NCBI GenBank assembly: GCA_016189025.1
Contig: JACPGS010000027.1
Span: 22,506 to 86,505, forward strand
Length of the DNA: 64,000 nt
From: Candidatus Magasanikiibacteriota bacterium
GTDB lineage: Bacteria; Patescibacteriota; Patescibacteriia; Magasanikbacterales; GWA2-37-8
Direction of reading: 5' to 3'
In this document: positions 13,379 to 45,149 of the stretch, one piece after another
Layout: each line of letters starts with the position of its first letter
Position numbering within the stretch: the stretch's first letter is position 1
Made by a program: the position numbers and the translations under genes
The notes under the pieces: model-generated
Seen by the model: the letters and a program-made list of their open reading frames with translations, nothing else
What the model was told of the DNA's origin: nothing
The model's database searches: none

Positions 13379-14341
13379 GTTTCCCCGGTGGAATTTTTGG
13401 TGGATATCACGCAATCGGCGATTGGTAATGTGGGTATAAATTTGGGTGGTAACAATGTTTTTGTGCCCCAGTAGTTCCTGCACCGAGCGGACATCAGCGC
13501 CTTGTTCCAGCAAATCAGTGGCAAAGCTATGGCGGAGCGTATGGGGGGTGGCATCTATTGGGAGGCCAGCCCGGGCGGCATAAGTTCTTACCAGGCGCTC
13601 TACCGAGCGGGCTGTCAGCCGCCGCTCGCTGTCTTTAGGCTGATTTTTGCTATAGCTGATAAAGAGGGGAGGAGAGAGGTCAAGTTGCCTGGTTTGCAGA
13701 TATTTTCCTAGCCAATGCAAGGCGCGCTCGGAAAAATAGACGGTACGCACCGCGCCGCCTTTGCCGGCAATGCTGATTTCCAGCGTTTTATATTTGCCTT
13801 TGGTAATAGCCGGAATATCAAAGCTACGTATATTAAGCGACGTTAACTCAGAAACCCGCATCCCGGTAGAAAAGAGGACCTCCAGAATAGCGCGGTCGCG
13901 CCCGCCTTCTTTAGTGGTAACATCGGGGATGTTCATTAGCTTCTCTATCTGCTCATAGGATAAAAATTTAATAGTTTTTTCTTTTTCAGTTAATTTAGGC
14001 AGTTTAATCTTATCTGATGGCAAAGCTTGAATATCGCGATCGGCAAAATAGGCCAACAGGGCGCGCAAAGCAATCAGGTAATAGTTCTGAGTAGTTTTTT
14101 TGAGATAATGGCCGCGGGCCTCTTTTTTCCGCGATAAATAAAGGCGATAGTGCCAAACCTGCTCCGAGGTTAATTCATGAGGTTTAATTTTGTTTAGCTT
14201 GTTATCTTGCAACCATTGTTTAAACATTTTAAGAAAGTTATGATAATTTTTGGTAGTGAGGGGGCTTAATCCTTTTTCTACTTCGCAATAATCCAAAAAC
14301 GAGGGGATCTCTTGAATAAGGGAGGTGGCTGATTTATGCAT
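13370..14341 (-). CDS. xerD: Tyrosine site-specific recombinase (XerC/XerD family)
   Basis: C-terminal HTLRHSFATDLLEQGADVRSVQELLGHKNIVTTQIYTHI catalytic box and N-terminal SAM-like core-binding domain. The symbol assignment is tentative. Confidence 0.8.
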   Translation of the reverse strand: MHKSATSLIQEIPSFLDYCEVEKGLSPLTTKNYHNFLKMFKQWLQDNKLNKIKPHELTSEQVWHYRLYLSRKKEARGHYLKKTTQNYYLIALRALLAYFADRDIQALPSDKIKLPKLTEKEKTIKFLSYEQIEKLMNIPDVTTKEGGRDRAILEVLFSTGMRVSELTSLNIRSFDIPAITKGKYKTLEISIAGKGGAVRTVYFSERALHWLGKYLQTRQLDLSPPLFISYSKNQPKDSERRLTARSVERLVRTYAARAGLPIDATPHTLRHSFATDLLEQGADVRSVQELLGHKNIVTTQIYTHITNRRLRDIHQKFHRGNKK

Positions 14342-14448
14342 AGAAAGTCGCTTAATCTATCTTATACGACGTTAGAAACACTGAAATTAAGGCCCAGTTT
14401 CCTTTCTTTTTCTTTCTCCCCTACCCCCCGTTCAACTAGTAGAAGATG

Positions 14449-14627
14449 AGACTGTAGAAGAATGCCGACCATAATCGTTATCCGTCTGGTCGCTGTCGCT
14501 ATTGTTGGAAATTACCTGGTCGGTCGCGGCAGACACTCTTTGGGTGCTCATAAATAATTGCGCGCCCAAAGACACTCGTCTGCCGCGCCCTGATGCTAAC
14601 TGGTTTTTTCAATTCTTCTCCAGTCTT
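14449..14627 (+). mobile_element. MITE-like family 1, copy B
   Basis: TIRs AGACTGTAGAAGAAT / ATTCTTCTCCAGTCT with one mismatch and a conserved core. The apical hairpin is replaced by ATAAATAATT. The copy lies between xerD and the ftsQ-like gene. Confidence 0.7.
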
Positions 14628-29055: not shown

Positions 29056-29484
29056 TCAGCCGATGTTATGGATTTTAATTTTCTTATATTTTTGCCCCAC
29101 CCGCAGGCGGGCTAATTCTTTTTCCAACTTCGACGCCAGCGCAGTGTAGTCTACGTCATCACGATGTCGCGCTTCGGACATGAGTTTTTCGGCGCGGGCT
29201 TTGGCCTCTTCGGCGCGGGTAAGGTCAATGGCGGCGGCGTGTTCGGCGGTGTCGGCGAGAATTACTACCGAGCCGTCCGGCCTGACTTCCGCAAATCCGC
29301 CGGAAACGGCCAGAGTTTGTTCCTGACTATCTTTAATATAACGTAATTCTCCGGGCTTAAGCAGAGTAACCAAAGGAACATGATGGGGAAGAACCGTAAT
29401 TTCCCCTTCTACGGTAGGCAGGCTGACTTGTTTAATTTCTTCAGAAAATACCGGACGTTCCGGGGTGATGATTTGGAATTTCAT
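29056..29484 (-). CDS. atpC: ATP synthase F1 epsilon subunit
   Basis: 142 aa with a beta-sandwich plus helical hairpin pattern, last gene of the atp operon. Confidence 0.85.
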   Translation of the reverse strand: MKFQIITPERPVFSEEIKQVSLPTVEGEITVLPHHVPLVTLLKPGELRYIKDSQEQTLAVSGGFAEVRPDGSVVILADTAEHAAAIDLTRAEEAKARAEKLMSEARHRDDVDYTALASKLEKELARLRVGQKYKKIKIHNIG

Positions 29485-29499
29485 AAATGACAGATCAGG

Positions 29500-30882
<1,383 letters not shown>

Positions 30883-30902
30883 TTAGTTATTGATTGGTTA
30901 GT

Positions 30903-30943
30903 GTGTCATTGCGAGGAGCCTCGCGGCGACGAAGCAATGACAC
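30903..30943. repeat. Nested palindrome GTGTCATTGCGAGGAGCCTCGCGGCGACGAAGCAATGACAC, a small palindromic repeat of the REP kind (repetitive extragenic palindrome), in the atpG-atpD spacer
   Basis: 10-bp outer stem GTGTCATTGC/GCAATGACAC with an inner CGAGG/CCTCG stem. It is related to the GTCATTCCGAGCG copies at 31630, 40091 and 46447. Confidence 0.6.
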
Positions 30944-30945
30944 CG

Positions 30946-32079
30946 TTATTCAAGTGCCGCCGCCCCTCCCACAATCTCCGCTATCTCCCGCGTAATCGCT
31001 CCTTGCCGCGCTTTATTAAACGAATAATTCAGCTCTTTAATTATATCTTCGGCCGCGTCGCTGGCGTTCCTCATTGCCATCATGCGGGCGCTGTGTTCGG
31101 AGGCGTCGGATTCTAGAATTGTTTGGTAGACTTGGGTTTCTACCAGGCGAGGCAGTAGCACATTCAAAACTTCTTTAGCGCCGGGTTCAAAGAGGAAGAT
31201 GTTTTGGTCGAGCGAGACCTCTCCCTGCCCTCTTCCTTCACTTTGTTCAGGACAGGCTCTTTGCGATGGAGAGGGTTCGATTTCTTCCGCTCCTTCTTGC
31301 CACCCAGGGGTCGGTTCTTCCGTTTCCCACAGTTCCTGCATTAAATGATGCCAGCCGCCGGCCAGATCCATTTCGGTAAGGGGCAAAATTTGTTTAACGC
31401 GCGGGATTTGTTGAACTGCCGAAACAAAGTCGGTGTAGGCGACGACTATTTTATCGTAAACGCCGTTGGTGTAATCAAGAATCGCCTGCTGGACTAAAGG
31501 CATTATTTCTTCAATTTTAGTTGTTAAGTCTTCTTTAGGATATTCGGCCGCGATGCGGTGGCCAAAGCGCTGGTATAATTTTTTGCCTTTTTTGCCGGTG
31601 AGGATTATTTGGACTTCGACGCTCCGTTTGTCATTCCGAGCGGAGTCCGCCGCAGTGGACGGAGTCGAGGAATCGCTTGAACTTTGTGACTCAACGGTCA
31701 AGGGATTCCTCCGCTCGCTGTGACGCTCGGTCGGAATGACAGTGGTGGTGACACCCTCTGCTTCAACAATATACTTATGCGCCTCTTGCAAAAGCCGGCT
31801 GTTAAACCCGCCCGCCAGACCGCGGTTGCTGGTGATATAGATCATGCCGATGGTTTTTACCGGCCGCTGATGCAACAGCGGATGCAGGCGGATATCCGTG
31901 CGCTTGGCAATATCCTGCAGCATCTCCCACGCCAAATTGGCGTAGCTCCTGGTACCCAAAACATTCCCCACCGCCCGGCGCATTTTCACGGCAGAAATCA
32001 TCTCCATCGCTTTTGTTATTTTTTTGGTGTTGCCAATGGATTTGATGCGGCGTTTGATTGTTTTGGTTGAGAGGGCCAT
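30946..32079 (-). CDS. atpG: ATP synthase F1 gamma subunit, unusually long (377 aa) because of in-frame insertions
   Basis: Conserved N-terminal (MALSTKTIKRRIKSI) and C-terminal (ITREIAEIVGGAAALE) gamma helices. Internal inserts PTERHSERRNPLTVESQSSSDSSTPSTAADSARND and EEPTPGWQEGAEEIEPSPSQRACPEQSEGRGQGE are absent from typical ~290-aa gamma subunits. Confidence 0.85.
   Translation of the reverse strand: MALSTKTIKRRIKSIGNTKKITKAMEMISAVKMRRAVGNVLGTRSYANLAWEMLQDIAKRTDIRLHPLLHQRPVKTIGMIYITSNRGLAGGFNSRLLQEAHKYIVEAEGVTTTVIPTERHSERRNPLTVESQSSSDSSTPSTAADSARNDKRSVEVQIILTGKKGKKLYQRFGHRIAAEYPKEDLTTKIEEIMPLVQQAILDYTNGVYDKIVVAYTDFVSAVQQIPRVKQILPLTEMDLAGGWHHLMQELWETEEPTPGWQEGAEEIEPSPSQRACPEQSEGRGQGEVSLDQNIFLFEPGAKEVLNVLLPRLVETQVYQTILESDASEHSARMMAMRNASDAAEDIIKELNYSFNKARQGAITREIAEIVGGAAALE
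31630..31740. repeat. 111-bp nested palindromic element inside the atpG coding sequence (GTCATTCCGAGCG...CGCTCGGTCGGAATGAC)
   Basis: Outer arms at 31630-31642 and 31724-31740, with inner arms GAGGAATCGC / GGGATTCCTC. The length is 37 codons, in frame. Confidence 0.65.
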
Positions 32080-32121
32080 ATTTTCCTTAACACACTTTTC
32101 AACTAACTTTTATAGTTCCAT

Positions 32122-32472
32122 TTATGATAAATCTATAATTTTCTTAGCGCTTTTTCGTATCTCCTCCATTTTTTCTGTTACTTTTATGCCTAAAGTTTCC
32201 AATTTTTGCCTCAATCCAGTAAAAACTGAAGAGGGAATCATCTCTTCATTCCTTAATAAAAGTTCGACAAGCTTCTCCGCATTCGCTGCAAAAATATTGA
32301 GTTGTTTCAGTCGTTTAATTAGTACAGCCGCCAATAACTCTCTGGATAAATCTACGGGAGTGGTTCCAATTTCAGTTAAGTAGGCACCAACAGCTTTATT
32401 AAAAGCTTCGATCGACGCTCTAAAAGTAGGAATGTCAAAAACTTCAATTTTTCCTCCTTCAGTCTCGTCCAT
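32122..32472 (-). CDS. Hypothetical protein (116 aa) encoded by an AT-rich insert between atpA and atpG
   Basis: Clean ORF with no recognisable family. Its base composition is visibly AT-rich compared with the flanking atp genes. Confidence 0.45.
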   Translation of the reverse strand: MDETEGGKIEVFDIPTFRASIEAFNKAVGAYLTEIGTTPVDLSRELLAAVLIKRLKQLNIFAANAEKLVELLLRNEEMIPSSVFTGLRQKLETLGIKVTEKMEEIRKSAKKIIDLS

Positions 32473-32482
32473 ACATTTAAAA

Positions 32483-33967
32483 TTACCTAAACTCCCCTAT
32501 CGCCTCTTTCAAATCCTTCTCTATCTTCTCATCCCACCCCCCCTTAGCAATCTTATCAAGGAGTGGACGTTTACTTTTATCCAGGAACGTATGGAATTTT
32601 TCTTCCCATTCCTTCATATTTTTCACCTCAACATCATTCGCAAATCCGTTTGACACCGCGTAGATAATTGCTACTTGATGTTCCACCGGCATTGGCGCGT
32701 ATTGCGGCTGTTTTAGGATTTCGGTGAGGCGCGCGCCGAGGTCAATTTGTTTTTTGGTTTCGGGGTCTAAATCGCTCGCGAATTGGGCAAAGGCTTCCAG
32801 CTCGCGGAATTGGGCCAGCGAGAGCTTCATTTTGCCGGCTACCTTCTTCATCGGTTTAATCTGGGCATCGCCGCCGACGCGCGAAACGGAAATACCGACG
32901 TTCATGGCCGGCCGGATGCCGCGGTAAAATAAATCGCTTTCCAAAAAAATCTGACCGTCGGTAATGGAAATAACGTTTGTCGGAATGTAGGCGGTTACGT
33001 CGCCGGCTTGGGTTTCAATAATCGGCAAAGCGGTAATGGAACCGCCGCCGTGTTCCTGGTTGCGGCGCGCGGCGCGCTCCAACAGACGGGAGTGGAGATA
33101 GAAGACATCACCCGGGTACGCTTCGCGGCCCGGCGGACGGCGGAGCAGGAGCGAAACTTCGCGATACGCCACGGCTTGTTTAGAGAGGTCATCGTATACT
33201 ACCAGCACATCCTTGCCAGCATCCATAAAATACTCGGCCATGGCAACGCCGGCGTACGGCGCGAAATATTGCAAGGCGGCGGATTCCGAAGCGCCCGCAC
33301 TCACGACGATGGTATAATCCATGGCGCCGGTGGCTTTTAGTTTGGCAACAATACGAGCCACTTTAGCTTCTTTTTGGCCAACGGCCACATACACACAGAT
33401 CATGTCCTGCCCTTTTTGGTTAATGATGGTGTCAATCGCCACCGCGGTTTTACCGGTCTGCCGGTCGCCGATAATCAGCTCGCGCTGGCCGCGGCCGATC
33501 GGTATCATCGCATCAATCGCTTTAATACCAGTCTGCACCGGCTGGCTCACCCGTTCGCGCGTCATTACGCCCGGCGCGATTTTTTCAATCGGGTAGAATT
33601 TCTTGCTGGTGATAGCCGCGCCGCCATCAATCGGTGCGCCGAGCGGGTTAACCACGCGGCCGATCAGCGCTTCGCCGACCGGCACCGACAAAATGCGCCC
33701 GGTGCGCTTTACCGTGTCCCCTTCTTTAATATGCTTAAATTCACCCAAGATAACTGCGCCGACAGTTTCCTCCTCCAGGTTCAGGGCAACGCCAAAAGTG
33801 TTTTGCGGAAATTCAAGCATTTCACTGGCTTGGCATTTTGATAATCCGCCGACGCGCGCAATGCCGTCACCGACTTCGGTAACGGCGCCGACCTCTTCTA
33901 CCTCGACTTGCTTTTCAAAGGAGGCGATGTTCTTTTTGAGTTCTTCGACGATTTGGTTGATAGACAT
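32483..33967 (-). CDS. atpA: ATP synthase F1 alpha subunit
   Basis: GDRQTGKT P-loop and typical length. Confidence 0.95.
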
Positions 33968-33973
33968 AGCGGC

Positions 33974-34360
33974 TTAAATTAGGCTTTGTTTTAGTCTTAC
34001 TAATTGTGTTTTTAAACTCGCGTCAAAAATTTTATCTTCGGTCCGCACCACAAACCCGCCCAGCAAACCGGCATCCACTTTTTCCGTTGACTCTGCTTTA
34101 TCCGCGAACGCTTTTTTTATTTTATTCAAGGTTGCCTCGGGCAGTTCCCGCGCCGAGGTGATGGTCATTTCCTCTATCCCCTCTTGTCGCTTGGCATACT
34201 TCACAAAGTCCGCGATAATGCGGTCGGTTTTTTTCAATAATTGCTGGCGCGCTAATAGTTCGGCAAAATTTTGAATAATCTGGTGCAAATCCTTGCCGGA
34301 TAAATTTTCGGTAGCTTGATAAAGAGCCTTGGCGTAGTCGGAAATACTTGATTTGCTCAT
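33974..34360 (-). CDS. atpH: ATP synthase delta (OSCP) subunit, short form (128 aa)
   Basis: N-terminal YAKALYQ and C-terminal LLGGFVVRTEDKIFDASLKTQL delta signatures. It is shorter than typical delta subunits. Confidence 0.7.
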   Translation of the reverse strand: MSKSSISDYAKALYQATENLSGKDLHQIIQNFAELLARQQLLKKTDRIIADFVKYAKRQEGIEEMTITSARELPEATLNKIKKAFADKAESTEKVDAGLLGGFVVRTEDKIFDASLKTQLVRLKQSLI

Positions 34361-34376
34361 ATTCTAAATACCCGAC

Positions 34377-34952
34377 TTAGATTTTTAATTTTAAACCGGC
34401 AACCATTTCTTCAACCAGCTCCTTATCTTTCTTGCTGTCAACTTTCTCGGTAAGAATTTTTTCCACCGCGGCCACCACTAAATTAGCGGCCTCGGTTTTA
34501 ATGTCCGCCATCATTTCGGCGCGTTCAATTTTGATGTTGCGCTTGGCCTGGTCTACCAGCAGCCCGATTTCTTTTTTGGCTTTTTCTTTCAGCTGGGCGC
34601 TTAGTTGGTCCGCTTCCGTAGTTGTTTTTTCTAAAATTTTGTTGGCGGCAACCTTGGCCTGGTCAATGCGTTCCTGATATTTTTGTTCGCTGCGCTGCAG
34701 ATTGGTCTCCACTTTTTTAGCGTTAGTCAAACTCTCGTCAATTAATTTTTGCCGTTCCGCCATTTTTTTAGTGAGCGGTTTAAGGATTAGCCGCCAGATA
34801 ATCGCCGCCACGATGGCAAAATTAATCAGTTGAAAAACCAGCGACTGGGCATTGATGCCTAAAGAAGCAAAAACGCCGGAATCGGCAGGCGCTTCGCTTG
34901 CGCGGGGAACTAATTCTTGTGGACTAGCGTAGGCAGTGGGTGTGAATAACAT
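34377..34952 (-). CDS. atpF: ATP synthase F0 b subunit
   Basis: Single N-terminal TM helix followed by a long charged helix. Confidence 0.8.
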   Translation of the reverse strand: MLFTPTAYASPQELVPRASEAPADSGVFASLGINAQSLVFQLINFAIVAAIIWRLILKPLTKKMAERQKLIDESLTNAKKVETNLQRSEQKYQERIDQAKVAANKILEKTTTEADQLSAQLKEKAKKEIGLLVDQAKRNIKIERAEMMADIKTEAANLVVAAVEKILTEKVDSKKDKELVEEMVAGLKLKI

Positions 34953-35019
34953 AAACTAATCGTGCGAACAGTAAATAACTCAATCCCGTTAGGCCTCTCG
35001 CGAGACCTGACGGGGTGAA

Positions 35020-35241
35020 TTACTTTAACGTGAATACCACCACCAGCGCGTAAATGGCGATGGCTTCCGCAAACGCGGCGCCGAGCAGCATCGGCACGAA
35101 CAGTTTGCCGGCCGATTCCGGATTGCGGCCGATGGATTCCATGGCTTTGGAAACCAGCCGACCAATGGCGAGGGCCGGGAAAAATCCCCCGATCGCCATC
35201 GTCAGGCCCTTGGCGAGCACGACAATGGATGCGTGTTCCAT
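35020..35241 (-). CDS. atpE: ATP synthase F0 c subunit
   Basis: 73-aa helical hairpin with a conserved acidic residue in the LGAAFAEAIAIY helix. Confidence 0.85.
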   Translation of the reverse strand: MEHASIVVLAKGLTMAIGGFFPALAIGRLVSKAMESIGRNPESAGKLFVPMLLGAAFAEAIAIYALVVVFTLK

Positions 35242-35351
35242 AATGTTTTGACCTTTATGATACCAGAGCCTGCTCCGGCAGGCCTTTACTCCCGCTTAAG
35301 TCGGGATTTGCCTGTCTCGGGCGGATGGCATCGTTAATTAATGACAAATAC

Positions 35352-36134
35352 CTAGTGTTCCGCGCCGTGCGGTTTGGCGCTGGCCACTGTCAGATACACC
35401 AGCGTTAGCATGGTGAACACCCCCGCCTGAATTAGCCCGACCAGCAGTTCTAACATCATAAACGGCACCGGAATTAATCCGGCCACCAAGGCGCTGATTA
35501 CGGAAATCAGCACCTCGCCGGCAAAAATATTGCCGAATAACCGAAGTGAGAGCGACAATACTTTGGCAAACTCGCTGATAATTTCTATTAGGCCGACGAC
35601 AAACTCGATGACAGCTTGAAAAATGGCAACGGGGCCTTTAGCGAAACTTTTAATTAAACTGCCGATCTGGATAAATTTATTCAGGTGGGTAAAAATGCCG
35701 ACCGTAATAAAACCAAAAATGTGCGAAGCCACTACCGAGACCAGCGCCATCGCCACCGTCAGATTCAGGTCGGTATTAGCCGGGCGCAGCAGCGGTTCTT
35801 GGTTCCAGGTCAGGCTGCCGGTGCCCGGGAGCAGCCCCAGCCAATTGGAGAGCAGAATAAAGAAAAATACCGAGCCGACAATCGGCAAGAAGCGCCGGGT
35901 AGTTTTCCGGTCTCCGGTTACCTGGTCAAAGTATCCTAGGAGCAATTCCAAAATATATTCCCAAAAATTTTGTAATTTCCCCGGGCGCAGCGTTACCCGG
36001 CGCCGTACCAGCAAGCCGATAATTAAAAAAATAATAATCGCCAGCCAGGAGTTAATGATAGTATTGGTAACGGTAATGCCACCGAGGGAGAATACCGGTT
36101 CGGCGGCCAGGGTCGGAATATGAATTTCTGCCAT
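35352..36134 (-). CDS. atpB: ATP synthase F0 a subunit
   Basis: Polytopic membrane protein with a conserved Arg in the LSLSLRLFGNIFAGE helix. Confidence 0.85.
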   Translation of the reverse strand: MAEIHIPTLAAEPVFSLGGITVTNTIINSWLAIIIFLIIGLLVRRRVTLRPGKLQNFWEYILELLLGYFDQVTGDRKTTRRFLPIVGSVFFFILLSNWLGLLPGTGSLTWNQEPLLRPANTDLNLTVAMALVSVVASHIFGFITVGIFTHLNKFIQIGSLIKSFAKGPVAIFQAVIEFVVGLIEIISEFAKVLSLSLRLFGNIFAGEVLISVISALVAGLIPVPFMMLELLVGLIQAGVFTMLTLVYLTVASAKPHGAEH

Positions 36135-36138
36135 ACAG

Positions 36139-36411
36139 TTATTTCTTTCCTAGTTCCTGATATTCTTGGCCGTATTTTTTCGCTTTTTTGTAGATAATTT
36201 TGGCGGAGGTCAAAGCGGCCAGGGCAAAGGCCAAGATCGTAAACCGGGGGCTGGTCTGATATTTTTCATCCAGCCATTGCCCGACCAGAACAAAAATGAT
36301 TACGGGGATGGCTAGAGTGGCGCCGAAGTCGCCGACAATGCGCAGAGCAAATCGGTAATACTCCTTTTCGTCCTTAAGGGGAGATTTAGTCGGAGGAAGC
36401 GGAACGGGCAT
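36139..36411 (-). CDS. AtpZ/AtpI-like small membrane protein preceding the atp operon
   Basis: 90 aa with two TM helices, sitting immediately upstream of atpB. Confidence 0.45.
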   Translation of the reverse strand: MPVPLPPTKSPLKDEKEYYRFALRIVGDFGATLAIPVIIFVLVGQWLDEKYQTSPRFTILAFALAALTSAKIIYKKAKKYGQEYQELGKK

Positions 36412-40090: not shown

Positions 40091-40118
40091 GGATTCCTCG
40101 GCTTCGCTCGGAATGACA
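40091..40118. repeat. REP-like palindrome GGATTCCTCGGCTTCGCTCGGAATGACA
   Basis: Same family as the 30903, 31630 and 46447 copies. Confidence 0.55.
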
Positions 40119-43196: not shown

Positions 43197-44663
43197 CTAG
43201 TAGGCCCGAGCAAAAATTACCCGCTGCCCGGAGGGGCGCCCCGAATAAATACATTTGCCATTTTCCGGTTTGCCGTCTGCCGGAATACAGCGAATAGTCG
43301 CTTTGGTTTCCTCTTTAATTTTTAATTCAGTTTCGGTAGTGCCGTCCCAGTGCGCTAACGCAAAACCTCCCTGCTCCATTACTTCTTTAAGTTCTTCGTA
43401 AGTATCTACTATCCGGGTACGATCAGTGGTAAATTTGGTGGCCCGGGTAAATAGATTAGTTTGAATTTCCCGCAGCAGCGCTTCCACTTTATTAGCGATG
43501 TCGTTTATTGGCCAGGATTCTTTGGTTAGCGTATCCCGTCGCGCCACTTCAATAGTTCCTTGGGCCAGATCTTTCGGTCCTAGGCCCAAGCGAATCGGCA
43601 CGCCTTTTAGTTCAGATTCGGCAAATTTCCATCCCGGCCGCTTATTATCGCTATTATCATATTGCACCGAAATATTTTTAGCGGCGAGCGCCTGCTTGAT
43701 GTTTAAGGCCGTCCGGTCAAGCTCTTTTAGCTGGTCAATCGTCTGGTAAATAGGCACAATTATCGCTTGAATCGGGGCAAGTTTCGGAGGCAAAACTAGG
43801 CCGTTGTCATCGGCGTGCGCCATCACCAGGGCCCCCATCAAACGGGTGGAAACGCCCCAGGAAGTGGCCCAGACATAGTCTAATTTTCCGCTGGCATCGG
43901 TAAATTGTACGTCAAATGCCTTAGCAAAATTTTGCCCCAAAAAATGAGAGGTGCCAGCCTGGAGTGCCTTGCCGTCCTGGGTCATAGTTTCCAACGTATA
44001 GGTTTCCACCGCGCCGGCAAAACGTTCATTAGCCGTTTTGGTCCCCTTAATAACTGGCATCGCCAGCCAATTTTCTACAAAATTAACATAAACGTCCAGC
44101 ATCTGCCGCGCCTCAGCCTGTGCCTCTGCGGCGGTAGCGTGCGCCGTGTGCCCTTCTTGCCAGAGAAATTCGGCGGTTCTTAAAAATAAGCGCGGACGCA
44201 TTTCCCACCGCACGACATTTGCCCATTGGTTAATCAGCAGGGGCAGATCGCGGTATGACCCGATCCATTTTTTGTAAGCATGCCAAATGATGGTTTCCGA
44301 AGTGGGACGAATGATCAATTCTTCTTCTAATTTGGCTTCCTCGTCTACTATTAAGTTGCCGGCGCGGTCGTTCTTTAGCCGGTAATGGGTGACTACCGCG
44401 CATTCTTTAGCAAATCCTTCCACGTGTTTGGCTTCTTTATTAAAAAATGATTTAGGAATAAATAAAGGGAAATAAGCGTTTTGGTGTCCGGTATCCTTAA
44501 ACATTTTATCCAGTATTGCCTGCATTTTTTCCCAGATGGCATAACCGTATGGTTTAATAATCATACAACCGCGCACTGCCGAATGCTCGGCCAGTCCGGC
44601 GGCTTCCACTAATTGATTGTACCACTCCGAATAATTTTCCGCGCGCGTCGGCAGTTTAGCCAT
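43197..44663 (-). CDS. proS: Prolyl-tRNA synthetase (archaeal/eukaryote-like type)
   Basis: Class II motifs, no bacterial insertion domain and a C-terminal zinc-binding extension. Confidence 0.85.
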
Positions 44664-44669
44664 AAGGAA

Positions 44670-45149
44670 TTAATTTCGAGGGATGGATTTTTTAATATGG
44701 AAAGAATTAAGTCTAGAATAATAGAGAATTATCATAATTAGAAAAACTAAGACAAAACTGGCGATGATATCAATTAAATGATGCACGCCTGCCAATATCC
44801 TTCCCTCGCCAATCAGCAAAGCAAGCGCCGCCAATCCCAAACCCGCTTTGCGGTTAAACCACCAAACGCTGCCGGCAAGCGCGGCAGCTAAGAGCGCGTG
44901 ATCGGAGGGGAAGCCATTATCAGCGGGGTGCGGCACCAGCGGAGTAAAATTGGCTACCACAAAGGGGCGCGGGTGGAAATAAATAGCGCCGGCAAGACGT
45001 GATAGGATAAAAGCAGTCAGGAGGATGATGCCGGTGACTTTGATTACTTCGCGCCAGCGTATGCGAGCATACCAACCCAGAGTCAAGGTAGCGCCGGCGA
45101 TGCTGACAAAGATTAAATCACGCGCCATTAACTTAATCAGCCATTCCAT
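44670..45149 (-). CDS. PAP2-family membrane phosphatase
   Basis: PSDHAL and GVHHLID PAP2 motifs. Confidence 0.65.
   Translation of the reverse strand: MEWLIKLMARDLIFVSIAGATLTLGWYARIRWREVIKVTGIILLTAFILSRLAGAIYFHPRPFVVANFTPLVPHPADNGFPSDHALLAAALAGSVWWFNRKAGLGLAALALLIGEGRILAGVHHLIDIIASFVLVFLIMIILYYSRLNSFHIKKSIPRN

Follow-up and report, generated by a model that had tools for sequence, protein, structure and literature searches.

Why does an uncultured Candidatus Magasanikbacteria bacterium from groundwater (CPR/Patescibacteria) have, within its ATP synthase operon, a short, AT-rich open reading frame (ORF) between atpA and atpG, and how might it have come to be there? We addressed this question in a 64,000-nucleotide stretch of DNA, hereafter the window. 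GenBank already lists the ORF, here called orfX, as a 'hypothetical protein' under accession MBI2444456.1 and locus tag HYV42_04430. An initial annotation had interpreted it as a horizontally acquired insertion into an operon type that has no intervening gene, and had proposed that it encodes either an accessory ATP-synthase-associated factor or a selfish passenger.

The AT-rich spacer between atpA and atpG

A complete F1Fo operon encoding all canonical subunits lies on the minus strand of the window (29056–36411). Its first gene encodes a 90-aa protein matching Pfam ATPase_gene1 (AtpI/AtpZ-like), followed by atpB, atpE, atpF, atpH, atpA, orfX, atpG, atpD and atpC. The features around orfX are as follows.

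32122–32472, minus strand: orfX, a 116-aa orphan coding sequence with an ATG start (from the ORF list and the sequence)
32080–32482, minus strand: AT-rich inserted segment of 403 bp, GC 0.345, extending from the atpA stop codon to the atpG start codon
32483–33967, minus strand: atpA, F1 alpha subunit, 494 aa, matching Pfam ATP-synt_ab_N, ATP-synt_ab and ATP-synt_ab_C; the upstream flank of the slot
30946–32079, minus strand: atpG, F1 gamma subunit, 377 aa and unusually long, matching Pfam ATP-synt at E 1.2e-82; the downstream flank of the slot
32473–32482, minus strand: the 10-nt gap between the atpA stop codon (TAA, 32483–32485) and the orfX ATG
32084–32088, minus strand: AAGGA, the Shine–Dalgarno sequence of atpG, 4 nt 5′ of its ATG, as read from the sequence

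Exactly as initially claimed, the 116-aa ORF has a low GC content (0.362, compared with 0.512 for the window) and sits between atpA and atpG in the orientation of both; its stop codon is separated from the atpG ATG by 42 nt. When GC was computed in 351-bp windows, 1.5% of them were as low as orfX. Its GC1, GC2 and GC3 were 0.45, 0.33 and 0.30, respectively, compared with a GC3 of 0.61 in atpA and 0.57 in atpG. The GC3 of orfX was below that of all other ORFs of at least 100 aa in the window, the next-lowest real genes (0.39) being located in a restriction-modification-like island, and its overall GC was also under that of the intergenic DNA of the window (0.459). Because the last and first codon blocks of atpA and atpG keep a host-like GC3 up to the junction, the composition break is confined to the 403-bp spacer, and the sharp break that had been noted initially was evident both in the 351-bp windows and in codon GC3. 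A recombination tract from an AT-rich relative was considered and ruled out, as the atpA and atpG flanks keep the host GC3 and show normal identity to relatives.

Lower GC is also a feature of operon genes that are conserved less well, atpH and atpF among them, and the AT-richness of orfX could in part come from weak selection and mutational bias and not from foreign origin. We observed no direct or inverted repeats bracketing the insert, of the kind that a mobile element might leave as scars. No donor or mobility gene for the insert was identified, and no similar DNA or protein was present in any collection searched. Other low-GC islands of the window are located at 1701–2661 (an 86-aa orphan and a Peptidase_S51 gene), 13881–14531 (the 5′ part of a tyrosine recombinase gene), 44381–44801 (the junction of two unrelated genes at 44.4–44.8 kb) and 60991–63991 (3 kb, with an SLFN/AlbA_2-HATPase_c_4 protein, a 93-aa orphan and an N6 DNA methylase).

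The neighbouring genes have peculiarities of their own. AtpG, with 377 aa compared with 296–340 aa in aligned relatives, carries two insertions. One is a 111-nt palindromic MITE-like element inside atpG (31630–31740, minus strand) with the terminal inverted repeat GTCATTCCGA, which is in frame and contributes 37 codons, 'VIPTERHSERRNP...SARNDK'; similar element-derived peptides are present at the same site in AtpG of the relatives L006 and L166. The second, at about 31200–31350, is a low-complexity segment, 'WETEEPTPGWQEGAEEIEPSPSQRACPEQSEGRGQGEVS'; the relative L167 has a related 'SPSQRRGQGEVSLD' segment at this site and a second copy at the site of the MITE-like element. Directly 3′ of the atpG stop codon, the 78-nt junction between atpG and atpD contains a perfect hairpin, GTGTCATTGC-N21-GCAATGACAC (about 30905–30945), which shares a GTCATT(G/C)CGA-type core with the element inside atpG; a further half-site is found at 40108–40117. 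On the other side of atpA, atpH (33974–34360) encodes a delta/OSCP subunit of just 128 aa. The Pfam OSCP profile was matched at positions 55–172 alone, indicating that roughly the initial third of the canonical N-terminal domain is missing from the product. AtpH of L168 is also 128 aa long, and tblastn matches in other relatives were of similar span.

The predicted orfX product and its coding signal

The product of orfX is predicted to be a soluble, all-helical protein of roughly 13 kDa. Its charge is near neutral (K+R 17, D+E 18), and no long hydrophobic segment that could span a membrane is seen in its sequence. An AlphaFold2 model from the single sequence, of low confidence (pLDDT 58.8), places helices at residues 14–34, 44–74 and 81–114 after a disordered N terminus. 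The initial description of a charged, helical protein without a family was upheld: searches of Pfam and NCBIfam (E up to 1–10), PHROGs, PADLOC and PDB sequences gave no family match, the sole PHROG match having an E value of 0.19. Comparing the low-confidence model with the PDB by Foldseek returned just generic helical bundles, at E values of at least 0.43.

Searches for relatives of any kind were equally negative. In a word-indexed search of 5.8 billion proteins, orfX retrieved itself alone, and collections of phage, plasmid and viral sequences gave no match. When phmmer was run exhaustively against 1.84 billion cluster representatives, it returned orfX and one further match, P0002 (2189 aa, E 4.5e-12), which we rejected as spurious. 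P0002 is a eukaryote-like acidic tandem-repeat protein, and its score adds up eight repeats of about 30 bits each, none of which is significant database-wide by itself. The window holds no paralogue or repeat of orfX. With no detectable homologue outside its own genome, orfX is an ORFan.

The absence of homologues means that conservation of orfX cannot be shown, and the insert might accordingly be read as a spacer in which the ORF, either born de novo or decaying, is translated incidentally or not at all and has no selected function. We consider such a proto-gene or neutral passenger unlikely. Its appeal lies in the low-confidence structure and in the Shine–Dalgarno sequence of orfX, which by inspection is just a weak and distant AGG/GGGGAG within the end of atpA. 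The opposite strand also has an ORF of 119 aa, and for bacterial orphans in general, transfer, divergence and de novo birth are all under discussion as origins (PMC12315717). However, the heterogeneity of nucleotides across codon positions in orfX (chi2 30.2) is on a par with that of known genes, lying above their median of 25.3, and is beyond the 99.9th percentile of shuffles (20.3); codon position 1 consists of 71% purines. The antisense ORF (32024–32383, plus strand), which has a TTG start, overlaps the start of atpG, is rich in S, F and I and has no Pfam match, displays a weaker, shadow-like periodicity (chi2 18.3), and we judged it to be a shadow ORF. Moreover, a stop-free run of at least 116 codons appeared in 0.6% of shuffles of the AT-rich spacer, the ORF fits the spacer precisely on the operon strand, and relatives are without a long spacer in which a gene could have emerged in place. 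orfX exists as a predicted protein gene and carries a coding signal.

The locus is not an assembly chimera, because the DNA spanning atpA, orfX and atpG is identical in five other metagenome assemblies from separate sequencing runs. As their DNA is identical, these five contigs contain no polymorphism in orfX from which dN/dS could be calculated. In four of the five other assemblies, the contigs stop at exactly position 32984 of the window, inside atpA, which hints at a break in the assembly upstream that is due to strain variation or to a repeat. The spacer was also considered as an RNA element and rejected, having no Rfam family and a folding energy like that of shuffles (z-score 0.13). In the search for a promoter or terminator of its own, a hairpin inside orfX (32227–32248) is one of 5 found, compared with 5.7 expected.

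Repeated use and fast turnover of the junctions flanking atpG

We compared 80 atp loci from species-representative Patescibacteria genomes, 80 metagenome loci and the contigs of the closest AtpG relatives. The rule from which the initial annotation started, that atp operons have no intervening gene, fails in Patescibacteria. Gaps of at least 300 bp were present between atpA and atpG in 10 of 76 loci, between atpG and atpD, oftener, in 18 of 63, and between atpD and atpC in 6 of 59; the remaining junctions were seldom expanded. Nearly all inserts in these slots are AT-richer than the host locus.

None of about 165 related loci contains a homologue of orfX, and the synteny check showed that the slot between atpA and atpG is mostly empty in relatives and is otherwise filled by unrelated genes. 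The junction measures 9–15 nt in the close relatives L007, L008, L009 and L012, 3 nt in L086 and 23 nt in L167, whose GC of 0.51 is the same as that of the window. Because the junction is empty in several of the closest relatives, orfX represents a lineage-specific gain. Together with the foreign composition, these junctions of 3–23 nt argue for the horizontally acquired insertion that had been proposed. A metagenome scan and an AtpG protein search for closer relatives yielded none beyond about 69% AtpG and about 88% AtpD identity.

Where the slots are occupied, their contents vary widely. Genes for 23S_rRNA_IVP four-helix bundles lie in slots of L006, L013, L014, L040, L166 and the P0006 and P0009 contigs, and L166 has one on both sides of atpG. 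A PDDEXK_3 gene is located between atpA and atpG in L067, and a GIY-YIG gene between atpG and atpD in L167. The remaining occupants are orphans, either soluble helical or small membrane ORFs. Expanded atpG–atpD junctions, seen in the loci and contigs with 23S_rRNA_IVP genes and in L167, usually hold 23S_rRNA_IVP and in one case GIY-YIG. Between atpD and atpC, L021, L023, L024 and L039 have a gene for a 217–260-aa cyclophilin-like, lipoprotein-like protein, the cyclophilin assignment being made by eye from the sequence and not through Pfam; unlike other slot occupants, the gene is kept between genomes.

The slot orphans are unrelated to each other and to orfX by BLASTP, Smith–Waterman alignment with shuffles (z-scores −0.5 to 1.3), hhalign (probabilities of at most 1.3%) and blastn. 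The orphan of L006 was a singleton in the search of 5.8 billion proteins, and those of L168 and L093 fall into 90%-identity clusters of one and two members, respectively. Direct evidence of replacement comes from L011 and L015, which are sisters with 100% bootstrap and whose DNA is 75% identical over the final 300 nt of atpA. The slot of L011 (6486–6806) contains a 95-aa soluble ORF and that of L015 (6486–6773) an 82-aa membrane ORF, with no shared DNA similarity, and the slot content has thus been replaced completely. The junctions flanking atpG are repeatedly used in Patescibacteria, and their contents turn over fast. Our literature search found no description of such recurrent, fast-turnover use of these junctions in Patescibacteria, which we regard as mildly new; short, AT-rich, lineage-restricted orphans are of an already known kind.

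A position-conserved gene might nevertheless hide behind this variety. By this account, the common ancestor of the clade comprising the window, L006, L168, L008, L012 and L086 acquired, in a single event, a fast-evolving gene for a small helical protein, which was later lost on two occasions and otherwise changed until its copies were no longer recognizable as related; the constancy of its position behind atpA would imply a role tied to the ATP synthase, for example as an IF1-, zeta- or AtpTheta-like inhibitor or as an assembly factor. The clade itself was recovered in a tree of concatenated AtpA, AtpG and AtpD with 91% bootstrap, and the occupied genomes cluster in it: three of the six members (the window, L006 and L168) have a slot ORF. 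In these three and in the close relatives L093 and the P0006 contig, the last two being outside the tree, the slot ORFs are alike in length (99–117 aa); that of P0006, a 4819-bp contig in ENA ERZ27297570, has 117 aa. The slot ORFs of the window, L006, L093 and L168 are helical, charged and without a Pfam match, and begin 7–10 nt after the atpA stop codon. AtpH is just about 50% identical among these genomes, so a weakly constrained protein of 110 aa could fall below detection, and known ATP synthase inhibitors are small, helical and different between lineages (PMC9317440; 10.1101/2021.07.30.454416). In terms of parsimony, three independent gains score no better than a single ancestral gain followed by two losses and extreme divergence, and no worse.

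Against this stand the zero pairwise protein, profile or DNA similarity among the slot ORFs and the interleaving of empty-slot genomes in the same clade. The slot holds 23S_rRNA_IVP in L166, PDDEXK_3 in L067 and membrane ORFs elsewhere, its replacement is seen directly in L011 and L015, and a GC3 of 0.30 in a genome with a GC3 of 0.55–0.6 speaks against long residence. We thus regard a position-conserved gene as an improbable explanation. As for a role in the ATP synthase, an epsilon subunit with C-terminal helices is already present, and orfX matches neither zeta, IF1 nor any ATP synthase family: there was no profile match to F1Fo subunits and accessory proteins (AtpI/AtpZ, alpha, beta, gamma, delta, epsilon, a, b and c), no Pfam match to ATPase inhibitors and no ATP synthase chain in the PDB sequence search. 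With no such similarity, no conservation and slot occupants that differ between genomes, the initial suggestion of an ATP-synthase-associated factor found no support. A more specific version, in which orfX, the ORFs of L006, L093 and L168 and perhaps the 117-aa ORF of P0006 are one fast-evolving F1Fo modulator, a CPR analogue of IF1, zeta and AtpTheta, strikes us as highly improbable. If it were true, a sequence in reduced, episymbiotic hosts would be nearly free to drift provided that its amphipathic helical shape stays.

Most doubtful is the idea that orfX is a highly diverged or decayed member of a slot family (23S_rRNA_IVP/bAvd four-helix bundle, GIY-YIG or PDDEXK_3): its 116 aa and helicity resemble 23S_rRNA_IVP proteins (108–130 aa), and in L166, which by AtpG is one of the two nearest relatives, the same slot is occupied by a gene of this family, but Pfam, PF05635 included, gave no match at E up to 10, hhalign probabilities were 0.2% against an alignment of four atp-slot IVP genes and 0.1% against the L166 IVP, and orfX contains no GIY-YIG or PD-(D/E)XK motifs.

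A lineage-specific orphan in comparison with known systems

We think it somewhat likelier than otherwise that orfX is a real, lineage-specific orphan gene in a high-turnover slot, which entered one Magasanikbacteria lineage on a foreign, AT-rich stretch of about 400 bp. In such a course of events, the junctions flanking atpG would pick up small AT-rich genes, among them 23S_rRNA_IVP, GIY-YIG and PDDEXK_3 genes, which are suspected to be selfish, and unrelated orphans; foreign DNA entering the slot between atpA and atpG would have brought in orfX. Because promoter-like and terminator-like sites of its own did not exceed the counts expected by chance, orfX would be co-transcribed on the atp operon mRNA. 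Because its Shine–Dalgarno sequence is weak and distant, its translation is probably coupled to atpA termination, with re-initiation 10 nt past the atpA stop codon. atpG retains its own ribosome-binding site 3′ of the insert and would be translated from this AAGGA.

The orfX product would in this way ride on a constitutively expressed essential operon and would be neither a stoichiometric nor a conserved component of the ATP synthase. The genomic context may point to an accessory or selfish function. Of the two functions initially suggested, the selfish passenger fits this context, in which the slots of relatives hold 23S_rRNA_IVP, GIY-YIG and PDDEXK_3 genes and unrelated orphans.

By itself, orfX is one more uncharacterized orphan, and its slot context is more useful. 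As the slot is bracketed by near-universal genes and is easy to locate in any genome, it is a clean natural setting in which to study the arrival, persistence and loss of orphans and small selfish genes in streamlined genomes, the tolerance of operon expression towards such passengers and the possible recruitment of any of them as regulators of the ATP synthase. For annotators, the lesson is that synteny rules from model bacteria do not transfer to CPR.

Several known systems invite comparison. The mitochondrial IF1, the alphaproteobacterial zeta and the cyanobacterial AtpTheta are small, largely helical, lineage-restricted F1Fo inhibitors (PMC9317440; 10.1101/2021.07.30.454416). orfX is similarly small, predicted to be helical and lineage-restricted, and it adjoins F1 genes. 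Each of IF1, zeta and AtpTheta is conserved within its own lineage, and their genes mostly lie elsewhere than in the atp operon. Unlike them, orfX is a singleton with no sequence match to any of the three, and its slot is empty in close relatives.

The small, free-standing 23S_rRNA_IVP (bAvd-like), GIY-YIG and PDDEXK_3 (GxxExxY) genes, which are found scattered over intergenic sites, share the same atp slots in relatives, with products of 83–137 aa, and are also AT-rich relative to their hosts; orfX differs in that neither its sequence nor its profile resembles any of these families. The slot turnover between L011 and L015 looks analogous to what has been outlined for T4-type phage genomes, in which unique genes without homologues are inserted, deleted and replaced between conserved neighbours (PMC2839356). 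The T4-type system is viral and tied to defined regulatory cassettes, whereas around orfX no repeated cassette or boundary motif was found.

In kind, orfX resembles other bacterial ORFans, which in E. coli are short and AT-richer than their host (PMC3514957); orfX, with 116 aa, is likewise short, far AT-richer than its host and homologue-free outside its own genome. In contrast to the ORFans of PMC2718499, it does not reside in a prophage, island or integrative element. It also differs from them in its location: the F1Fo operon that surrounds it is essential and tightly packed, and in relatives other orphans occupy the slot.
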